A stretch of 64,000 bases of DNA from NCBI RefSeq assembly GCF_054482525.1, contig NZ_CM137006.1. The stretch is one strand, 5' to 3'. Below the pieces are notes generated by a model. That model saw only the letters and a list, made by a program, of their open reading frames with translations. It was not told the origin of the DNA and did not search any database. Of the stretch, positions 1 through 1,269 are shown piece by piece. The position numbers were made by a program, and so were the translations under genes. Within the stretch, counting starts at the first letter, position 1; each line of letters starts with the position of its first letter.

Positions 1-11
1 GTCTAAACTTT

Positions 12-37
12 ACGCCCTAATTAGGGCGTTTTATTTA
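12..37 (+). terminator. Perfect 18-bp palindrome ACGCCCTAA/TTAGGGCGT followed by TTTTATTT; intrinsic terminator for a plus-strand gene lying upstream of the window, possibly bidirectional
   Basis: Palindrome at 12-29 read directly, T-run at 30-37; the 205-aa minus-strand ORF stops at 44-46 immediately beside it. Confidence 0.6.
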
Positions 38-43
38 AAAAAG

Positions 44-661
44 TTAATTTGCTGTATTTTCTCTCATCTTTCTAAGTTCTGGCAATACTTTCTTATAGAA
101 TTTCGTAGTGGAATCAGCGCAGTAGTTTTGCAGATACTTATAGTTTTCTTCAAATTTAGGGAGATCTTTAGCTACCGTCAATTGCTTTGGTAAAGTTCCG
201 GTAGCATCATCGGTTATATCAAATGTTATTGAATTATGTTTTCGATCTTCATTAACTTTTTTTAAAGTGGCAACAATAGGGCTTTTATCCATAGAACCAT
301 CTATTAGTTGGCGAACTTGAAACTTCCTTGGGATTATAAAATTAATTACTGACGGAGGTTCACTATTTAATGTTATATTCCAAGTTATTGGCATAGCATC
401 ACATAAACCTTCAGATATTATTTCACCATCAATTGAACCATCAGAATTGGCGATAAATTGTATTATAACAAGTGGTTGATCTTTATTTAAGCCAAGATCT
501 CCACTATTTATTATATATTCAGCGTCTGTCGACCATTTGCCTGTTAGAAATTCTTTTTGATAAAGTGCTTCATTTATTTCACCTCTATATGGTAAATATA
601 GACCTATAGCACCAATTGCAACACCTAATACAGTGCATATTGTTGTTATTCGTCCACTCAT
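44..661 (-). CDS. Hypothetical protein, 205 aa, N-terminal hydrophobic anchor then a soluble D/E/K/N-rich domain; no family recognised
   Basis: Uninterrupted ORF with ATG at 659-661 and TAA at 44-46; hydrophobic stretch ITTICTVLGVAIGAIGLYL near the N-terminus; low GC (counted 23/60 and 19/60 G+C in two 60-nt stretches); sits where K-12 has ydiL but is too long to be the 118-aa YdiL. Confidence 0.55.
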   Translation of the reverse strand: MSGRITTICTVLGVAIGAIGLYLPYRGEINEALYQKEFLTGKWSTDAEYIINSGDLGLNKDQPLVIIQFIANSDGSIDGEIISEGLCDAMPITWNITLNSEPPSVINFIIPRKFQVRQLIDGSMDKSPIVATLKKVNEDRKHNSITFDITDDATGTLPKQLTVAKDLPKFEENYKYLQNYCADSTTKFYKKVLPELRKMRENTAN

Positions 662-978
662 ATCACACTCGTTATCTTATCCTTGTTGTAGTTAAGCATT
701 TTATTTTATTTTTTTATTGTGAAAATGGCTAGTTTTAGTTGGGTCTTGCGCTGAATCTAACGAGTGCTTACCCCGTGAAGTGATTTATGATTAAAGTTCG
801 TTTTGTTTTTGGTTAAAAAATGAACATGTGAGTGCTTTGGAAAATTTCTGTAACACTCACCTGATTTACGCTGGTAGCACACAAATGGTACACAAACGGC
901 ACACAGGTAATCGCATACCTTTAATGACCTAATTTCTTCAAGCCCCTGCATTGCTGCGTTTGTCGTGATTTTCGGCAT

Positions 979-1084
979 AAAAAAAAGCCCATCGTGGGAG
1001 ATGGGCAAAGACTACACACAGCAATTCGTTGTTTCACTCAGGGGATTTCCATGCTTATAAATCAATATGTTGATTTATAACCGT
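979..1084 (-). ncRNA. rprA: RprA small regulatory RNA (Hfq-dependent activator of rpoS translation)
   Basis: Reverse complement of 979-1084 reads ACGGTTATAAATCAACATATTGATTTATAAGCATGGAAATCCCCTGAGTGAAACAACGAATTGCTGTGTGTAGTCTTTGCCCATCTCCCACGATGGGCTTTTTTTT, matching rprA as I recall it, including the terminal hairpin and U-run; lies downstream of ydiK as in K-12. Confidence 0.85.
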
Positions 1085-1269
1085 GAGCTAATAGTAGGCA
1101 TACGGACTTTTTGCGTCGATCAGATTCGTCTCATTAGTTTAAAAACTGTAAAGAATTTGCGACAGGTACTACCAGCTGAATGGCGGTAAGCAGGAAAATA
1201 TGGGGAAGAGCAAGCAAATATCAATTAGCGGTGGTTAACAATCAGGCGGCAGAGCCGCCTGATGAGAAA

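Follow-up and report, generated by a model that had tools for sequence, protein, structure and literature searches.

What is the AT-rich segment that adjoins the small RNA (sRNA) gene rprA at the left edge of the 64,000-nucleotide stretch of DNA considered here (the window; NCBI RefSeq assembly GCF_054482525.1, contig NZ_CM137006.1), and what might its single gene, encoding a protein of 205 amino acids (aa), do for the cell that carries it? The original prediction, made from the letters of the window, described this edge as AT-rich and non-core, and proposed that it is horizontally acquired cargo at a break in synteny, with the bulk of the acquired DNA lying upstream of position 1. Both statements are borne out. 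The G+C content of positions 1-900 is 0.30-0.36 per 200-bp interval, against approximately 0.50-0.60 in ydiK and ydiJ, and window positions 1-977 are the right end of an 11,641-bp integrative island that entered the 3′ end of rprA by site-specific recombination and that carries, upstream of position 1, integrase, primase, HEPN-annotated and tape-measure-like genes.

The insertion can be followed in the annotated region of Escherichia coli PCN033 (locus L001; a window position equals the L001 position minus 20,000), which is one of only three among 5,426 complete E. coli genomes, the others being SCU-102 and 19KM1776, to carry window positions 1-1000 at 100% identity. In PCN033, two copies of rprA enclose approximately 11.6 kb of foreign genes, beyond which ydiL, ydiM and ydiN follow in the K-12 order. 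The two rprA copies share a 71-bp direct repeat, identical at every position and spaced by 11,641 bp, and the same repeat also flanks the related islands of FREC5, S10 and Phytobacter. Conversely, the reconstructed uninterrupted ydiL-rprA-ydiK junction is contiguous in 5,406 of the 5,426 genomes. A perfect repeat of the rprA 3′ end, combined with an empty site elsewhere, is the signature of site-specific integration with gene regeneration. These counts also answer the presence/absence comparison that the original prediction had proposed, and dispose of the possibility that the segment is a core gene or a long allele of ydiL: ydiL is intact, has a length of 118 aa, as the original prediction gave it, and lies 11.6 kb away, on the far side of the island. 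The three carriers, isolated from a pig, a human and a dog, are 100% identical over 20 kb of flanking core, the next genome being 99.1% identical, which makes them one clone with one acquisition. In about 12 further complete E. coli genomes the junction is not contiguous and the integrase family of the rprA islands is absent; other insertions or rearrangements near rprA may exist there.

The beginning of the foreign sequence had been placed just below position 979. Foreign DNA is indeed found there, but its border with the native chromosome is the 71-bp identical stretch at 978-1048 rather than a single point; the crossover lies inside this repeat, so that the unambiguously foreign DNA of the window comprises positions 1-977. 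The rprA copy at the right attachment site (attR), inside the window, is full length, with its promoter and 5′ part on the chromosomal, ydiK side. The adjoining right arm of the island is conserved, being, from position 840 onwards, 96% identical to FREC5 and 91% identical to S10, and contains repeats of a GyACACA motif that clusters at both island ends, similar repeats adjoining the left attachment site (attL). These repeats are plausibly arm-type integrase-binding sites. An 83-aa open reading frame (ORF) at window positions 757-1008 on the minus strand, overlapping rprA and the right arm, is probably spurious. At the attL junction (L001 9336-9456, minus strand), the island sequence beside the 71-bp core mimics part of the 5′ half of rprA; with 81 bits the partial gene exceeds the Rfam threshold of 70, and it is annotated in RefSeq as a second rprA. 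The strain may make a second RprA-like RNA from attL.

Integration at the 3′ ends of RNA genes is a familiar strategy, P4 using a leucine tRNA gene and CP4-57 using ssrA. The rprA island shares with such elements the duplication of the 3′ end of the target gene together with its terminator, the supply of an identical replacement and the presence of an integrase gene at one of the junctions, but differs in the length of its core (71 bp) and in its rarity, the island integrase family being present in only five of the 5,426 E. coli genomes. In open-access text, the PCN033 genome paper included, we came across neither a mention of rprA as an attachment site nor a description of the island or the 205-aa protein.

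Comparison of the island with its relatives delimits the cargo. In E. coli, these relatives are only FREC5 (88% identity over 91% of the island) and the more diverged S10, both at rprA, whereas in Phytobacter massiliensis an 8-kb remnant island is flanked by rprA copies and holds the same cassette in the same place. A wider scan with the tape-measure-like protein as query, covering one genome per species for 100,044 species, returned a single locus, that of Phytobacter. The 205-aa gene occupies a monocistronic cassette, in place of which FREC5 has an empty slot with a 75-bp spacer; S10, using the same two breakpoints, has a 1.5-kb cassette with a 381-aa PIN_12-domain protein (E = 1.2e-35). The slot, flanked by the tape-measure-like gene and by attR at the island end away from the integrase, is thus exchangeable and has fixed boundaries, its content varying among islands from nothing (FREC5) to a PIN nuclease (S10) or the 205-aa gene. 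Between Phytobacter and the island studied here, identity is 90% over the stretch made up of the cassette, the right arm and the 3′ end of the tape-measure-like gene, whereas the remainder of the Phytobacter tape-measure-like protein is only 37% identical, indicating that the cassette end has moved by recombination between island lineages. A functional dependence of the 205-aa gene on the tape-measure-like gene was considered and rejected: FREC5 and S10 carry the latter without the former, and all other contexts show the reverse. Phage-inducible chromosomal islands (PICIs) are reported to carry immune systems at their 5′ or 3′ ends (Penades and colleagues, PMC11364771); the same paper, which deals with Tai systems, supports the hotspot concept but shows no tie to the 205-aa protein. 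The 205-aa gene is accessory cargo in a mobile-element hotspot, a kind of arrangement already known.

The cassette is also distinct in composition, with a G+C content of 32.4%, compared with 37.7% for the remaining island and 50.1% for the adjoining 20 kb of core; the G+C content at third codon positions of the 205-aa ORF is 18%. Both the ORF at 44-661 on the minus strand and the 18-bp palindrome at 12-29 are present as originally described, and the convergent plus-strand gene expected just outside the window proved to be the tape-measure-like gene. The palindrome folds at -12.3 kcal/mol (z -3.0) on the plus strand and at -14.6 kcal/mol (z -4.2) on the minus strand, and it is the predicted intrinsic terminator common to the tape-measure-like gene and the 205-aa ORF. 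Two overlapping candidate promoters precede the ORF (Table 1).

The earlier reader had been unable to assign the 205-aa product to a family, and it remains without a match in Pfam, NCBIfam, PHROGs or PADLOC-DB v2. Its status as an orphan, by contrast, holds only in part: there is no named family, but a small family does exist on other mobile elements. A word-indexed search recovered 30 relatives with identities of 62% or above, every one of them from Enterobacterales and hypothetical by label; among 1.84 billion representative proteins, a profile search yielded only 33 clusters, unannotated; and a second database search with a divergent profile returned no member of a named family, only entries labelled 'hypothetical protein'. 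That the ORF might be spurious was rejected, since the family is conserved down to 22% identity with invariant residues and the ratio of nonsynonymous to synonymous substitution rates (dN/dS) is approximately 0.2 (0.2 versus the Phytobacter copy).

The structure model of the protein, with a predicted local distance difference test (pLDDT) score of 82.4, comprises a signal anchor, a linking helix, an eight-stranded up-and-down beta-barrel and a C-terminal helix. In an alignment reaching down to 22% identity, C87 and C181 are invariant, and the G41-x-W43 motif is near-invariant, with G41 and W43 present in 90% or more of the members; a G-x-W motif at the first strand marks structurally conserved region 1 (SCR1) of lipocalins. 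The N-terminal membrane anchor recognized by the earlier reader is supported by conservation and by a charge bias: its N-terminal flank holds 57 lysine or arginine residues versus about 8 aspartate or glutamate residues, whereas the C-terminal flank holds 42 versus about 42. The soluble domain of every family member contains exactly two cysteines. This charge bias and the cysteine count argue for an anchor with its N terminus inside and C terminus outside, a periplasmic barrel and a disulfide to the C-terminal helix. We consider it probable that the 205-aa protein is such an inner-membrane-anchored, disulfide-bonded periplasmic barrel of the calycin type, and there is good support in the alignment for a C87-C181 disulfide that would staple the barrel to the C-terminal helix. 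Foldseek retrieved uncharacterised relatives only, followed by lipocalins at E = 5e-3 or weaker, and no lipocalin or avidin Pfam family matched at E <= 0.001. A lipoprotein was ruled out, as C9 lies outside any lipobox and is not conserved beyond the close family.

To place the family in its genomic settings, we surveyed 13 loci that carry its members, 10 of which lie in mobile elements. The mobile contexts include the rprA islands (E. coli and Phytobacter); plasmids, namely those of the IncX1 type, one of the IncFII type and one in Klebsiella; the remnant of a P4-like element in Mixta; two further islands, one of int-AlpA-DUF927 type in Salmonella, with the gene as cargo at the end away from the integrase, and one with an integrase in Budviciaceae; and two prophages, a tailed one in Buttiauxella, with the gene at its integrase end, and a filamentous one, with the gene at its accessory end. 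On a short metagenomic contig an integrase is encoded two genes away, and one further contig is too short for its context to be judged. Examination of the neighbours for defence families, which the original prediction had suggested, was productive in three contexts: one island encodes GajA and GajB (907 and 761 bits) directly upstream of the family member, a second island encodes PD-Lambda-5_A (765 bits) at a distance of two genes, and on IncX1 plasmids an OLD/AriA-like ATPase is encoded two genes downstream. An all-against-all comparison of 376 neighbouring ORFs from 11 loci revealed no partner gene common across contexts, the sole recurring neighbour being a 169/171-aa ORF confined to plasmids. 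There is accordingly good support for the 205-aa product working without a dedicated partner gene. Among 72,556 plasmids, 37 carry the family, and 26 of these 37 are conjugative, IncX1 being an example. On the IncX1 plasmids (L002 10001-13220; L021 6001-9220) a 203-aa homologue is followed by the 169-aa ORF and then by the 633-aa OLD/AriA-like ATPase; the 169-aa neighbour recurs on the IncFII plasmid, with a more distant 171-aa paralogue nearby, and a plasmid-specific module is possible.

Several gene modules suggest that the rprA island is a satellite-like, PICI-like element. The intact islands encode, besides several small ORFs, proteins that PHROG and NCBIfam label as an integrase, a DNA primase, a helicase-primase ATPase or DUF3987 protein and a Ner/SfsB-like repressor. 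Every rprA island contains a C4-type antisense RNA immediately upstream of the repressor gene, which suggests RNA-based immunity of the P1 immI/P4 CI kind. The gene for the HEPN-annotated protein, which has no Pfam or PADLOC match, is kept in the three E. coli island lineages and is absent from the Phytobacter remnant. The tape-measure-like protein (662-737 aa) is intact in all four islands (88%, 40% and 37% amino acid identity); it matches PHROG tape-measure families at E = 2.5e-21 and TIGR01541 at 82.2 bits, under the curated cut-off of 104.75, and its gene is the only structural-type gene of the island, with no other tail gene alongside.

With PICIs and P4-like satellites the rprA islands share an integrase at one end, a P4-alpha-type primase/helicase module, an immunity RNA of the C4/CI clan and a lack of capsid genes, as well as an exchangeable accessory slot at the end opposite the integrase, which in sister islands holds a PIN nuclease or nothing. 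They differ in that a HEPN protein and a single, unaccompanied tape-measure-like gene belong to their conserved backbone and in using an sRNA gene as attachment site, and the copy in the window has lost the catalytic half of its integrase. Membership in this class is partial, with modules for replication, immunity and integration found in the sister islands. Relative to FREC5, a 1,875-bp deletion has removed the integrase catalytic half, the GIY-YIG gene and most of the primase gene; the two convergent genes are now fused, the integrase gene keeping its N-terminal half and the primase gene its N-terminal third. What is left of the integrase is its N-terminal 193-209 aa, a decayed copy rather than a functional enzyme. 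Because this deletion truncates the integrase, the island is probably immobile in this strain, fixed in place.

What, then, would the cargo do? Taking the evidence as a whole, we lean slightly towards an explanation in which a satellite-like island at rprA carries, in an exchangeable cassette, a periplasmic barrel protein that protects its carrier. The functional part of this explanation is tentative, and we give it clearly less than an even chance: the 205-aa protein would protect the carrier cell at its envelope, most probably against incoming phage, which it would exclude at the adsorption stage or later, and it could do so by capturing a periplasmic target, whether from the phage or from the envelope, and so keeping the phage genome out. 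Such protection would resemble the benefits that the accessory slots of satellites, prophages and plasmids confer. Blocking of genome entry is the proposed mode of action of membrane-anchored exclusion proteins of temperate phages, of which HK97 gp15 (Cumby et al. 2012 and 2015, cited in PMC11364771) is reportedly one. With superinfection-exclusion proteins such as HK97 gp15 and lactococcal Sie2009, the 205-aa gene shares its small size, its single-gene organization with a candidate promoter and a terminator of its own, and the position of a low-GC 'moron'; its product is likewise predicted to be anchored in the inner membrane, to face the periplasm and to act without a partner. It differs in lacking similarity to the PHROG exclusion families and in being absent from sequenced phage genomes, and we know of no barrel fold among membrane-anchored superinfection-exclusion proteins. 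The orphan family can reasonably be put forward as a candidate for a new gene of defence or exclusion. A bolder formulation, which we regard as doubtful, is that the 205-aa protein founds a new family of anti-phage factors that are each encoded by a single gene, face the periplasm with a membrane-anchored lipocalin-like barrel, exclude phage genomes at entry and are traded among the accessory slots of satellites, prophages and conjugative plasmids. Its carrier here would belong to an undescribed family of rprA-targeting satellites whose backbone combines a HEPN protein, a C4-type RNA switch and a lone tape-measure homologue.

The fold itself is the source of an alternative that we consider unlikely, namely, that the protein is a lipocalin-like periplasmic binder of a lipid or another hydrophobic ligand, conferring, as Blc does, a benefit in envelope maintenance or niche fitness unrelated to phage. 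The eight-stranded up-and-down barrel, the packed C-terminal helix, G-x-W at the first strand and the conserved cysteine pair, typical of lipocalins, are indeed shared with calycins such as the Blc lipocalins and avidins, and distant family members occur in chromosomal contexts without mobile-element markers. The protein departs from calycins, however, in being anchored by an N-terminal transmembrane helix rather than carrying a lipobox or a cleaved signal peptide, and in having no Pfam match. Quite unlikely is a role as an orphan immunity protein, carried against competitors, that would neutralize a periplasm-acting toxin, be it a colicin M-type bacteriocin or an effector of a type VI secretion system (T6SS) or of contact-dependent inhibition (CDI). 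A small inner-membrane-anchored periplasmic disulfide protein is the format of several immunity proteins, such as the colicin M immunity protein Cmi, the gene stands alone without a partner and IncX1 carriers have a microcin C-type cluster a few kb away, yet no toxin gene is adjacent in any of the 13 contexts, and this very small family has no apparent counterpart among toxin families. Entry exclusion, by which the protein would block redundant conjugative transfer into cells in which the element is already present, fits the small envelope format of entry-exclusion proteins and the predominance of conjugative plasmids among the carriers (26 of 37), but is very improbable given that the gene also resides in islands that are not conjugative, in plasmids that are not mobilizable and in two prophages, one tailed and one filamentous, and that on plasmids it lies near partition and resolvase genes, with no transfer gene among the genes listed around it. 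Equally improbable is an abortive-infection effector resembling Cap15 of the cyclic-oligonucleotide-based anti-phage signalling systems (CBASS), in which a cytoplasmic ligand-sensing barrel behind two transmembrane helices would sense a nucleotide signal and the transmembrane segment disrupt the membrane: the 205-aa protein has one such segment and no match to the PADLOC Cap15 model, the charge bias and invariant cysteine pair place its barrel, by prediction, in the periplasm, and no CD-NTase or other signal synthase is encoded among the neighbours in the 13 contexts.

Against the proposal of a satellite-borne exclusion factor a number of observations have to be set. The protein matches none of the families in the four collections searched, no phage among 50,697 GenBank phage records encodes the family, and BFVD holds no similar structure. 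The N-terminal 30 residues of the model have a pLDDT of only about 55, and both the topology and the disulfide derive from sequence statistics. Promoter-like sites in the region are no more numerous than expected from shuffling, which makes the candidates upstream of the ORF weak evidence. Two contexts, a chromosome of Acidovorax and a site downstream of rpoD-mug, are without mobile-element markers, and defence genes are nearby in only three contexts, where they may merely reflect shared accessory regions. In the island itself, sid/psu/delta, rppA/ppi and terS were not recognised by sequence profiles, the only means applied, and the small ORFs have no PHROG match.

The results turn an orphan ORF at a synteny break into a cargo cassette with exact boundaries, on a rare element attached at the gene of a stress-response sRNA. 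Satellite and prophage hotspots have repeatedly yielded new anti-phage genes, so that a stand-alone gene with a confident fold model is a cheap candidate for testing. Exclusion of phage from the periplasmic side, if true, would enlarge a class of defences that has few members by both a new fold and a new family, whereas a lipid binder or a toxin-immunity protein would be ordinary accessory cargo. The island, with its lone tape-measure homologue, C4-type RNA, HEPN protein and two RprA-like genes, offers a small, tractable system for asking what use a satellite has for a tail-length protein.

Table 1. Features of the left edge of the window, of the rprA island and of the 205-aa protein (L001, annotated PCN033 region)
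Feature	Position	Strand	Details
Palindrome	window 12-29		perfect, 18 bp, 7-bp stems, 4-nt loop; T-run after it on + strand
205-aa ORF	window 44-661	-	ATG start
Candidate sigma-70 promoters of the 205-aa ORF	window 698-731	-	two, overlapping (TAGCCA-17-TAAAAT; TTTTCA-16-TAAAAT); consensus scan only
Conserved right arm (attR arm)	window 840-977		three direct GyACACA repeats at 877-885, 889-897, 900-908
rprA sRNA gene	window 977-1084	-	intact; Rfam RF00034, 118.8 bits vs threshold 70, full length 1-108
att core	window 978-1048		3′ 71 nt of rprA including terminator; perfect second copy adjoins integrase gene
Cargo cassette	L001 19984-20839 (window -16 to 839)		single gene, 856 bp; delimited by BLAST vs FREC5 island
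Tape-measure-like gene	L001 17994-19982	+	ends 18 nt before window position 1
HEPN-annotated protein gene	L001 13850-15001	+	383 aa; RSKIVH (Rx4H) motif
C4-type antisense RNA	L001 13137-13225	+	Rfam RF01695, 61-66 bits vs threshold 45 (all four loci)
C4-type antisense RNA	L008 8896-8984
C4-type antisense RNA	L009 12025-12112
C4-type antisense RNA	L020 5658-5746
Tyrosine integrase gene	adjoining attL		401 aa, intact in FREC5 and S10
GIY-YIG nuclease gene			intact islands
Primase gene			intact islands; Zn-ribbon/Toprim
Helicase-type ATPase gene			intact islands; DUF3987 in S10
Signal anchor (predicted)	residues 5-23
Helix (predicted)	to residue 39
Eight-stranded up-and-down beta-barrel (predicted)	residues 41-165
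C-terminal helix (predicted)	residues 170-203

Further sequence features were noted in the island and its surroundings. The control region from which the replication operon and the C4/repressor genes diverge contains iteron-like ATTCACCTGAAT repeats (L001 12751-12911), which may be a replication origin or operator sites. A 61-nt repeat (89% identical; L001 13706-13766 and 17912-17972, with a third copy in FREC5 at L008 4291-4354) lies just upstream of the HEPN and tape-measure-like genes and holds the hairpin TCAC-CA-GCCCC-GTA-GGGGC-GTGA; with folding z-scores of only -1.8 and -2.8, it is a possible regulatory site common to the two genes. Outside the window, an IS1 element at L001 2476-4228 splits ydiF of PCN033 into two pseudogene fragments.

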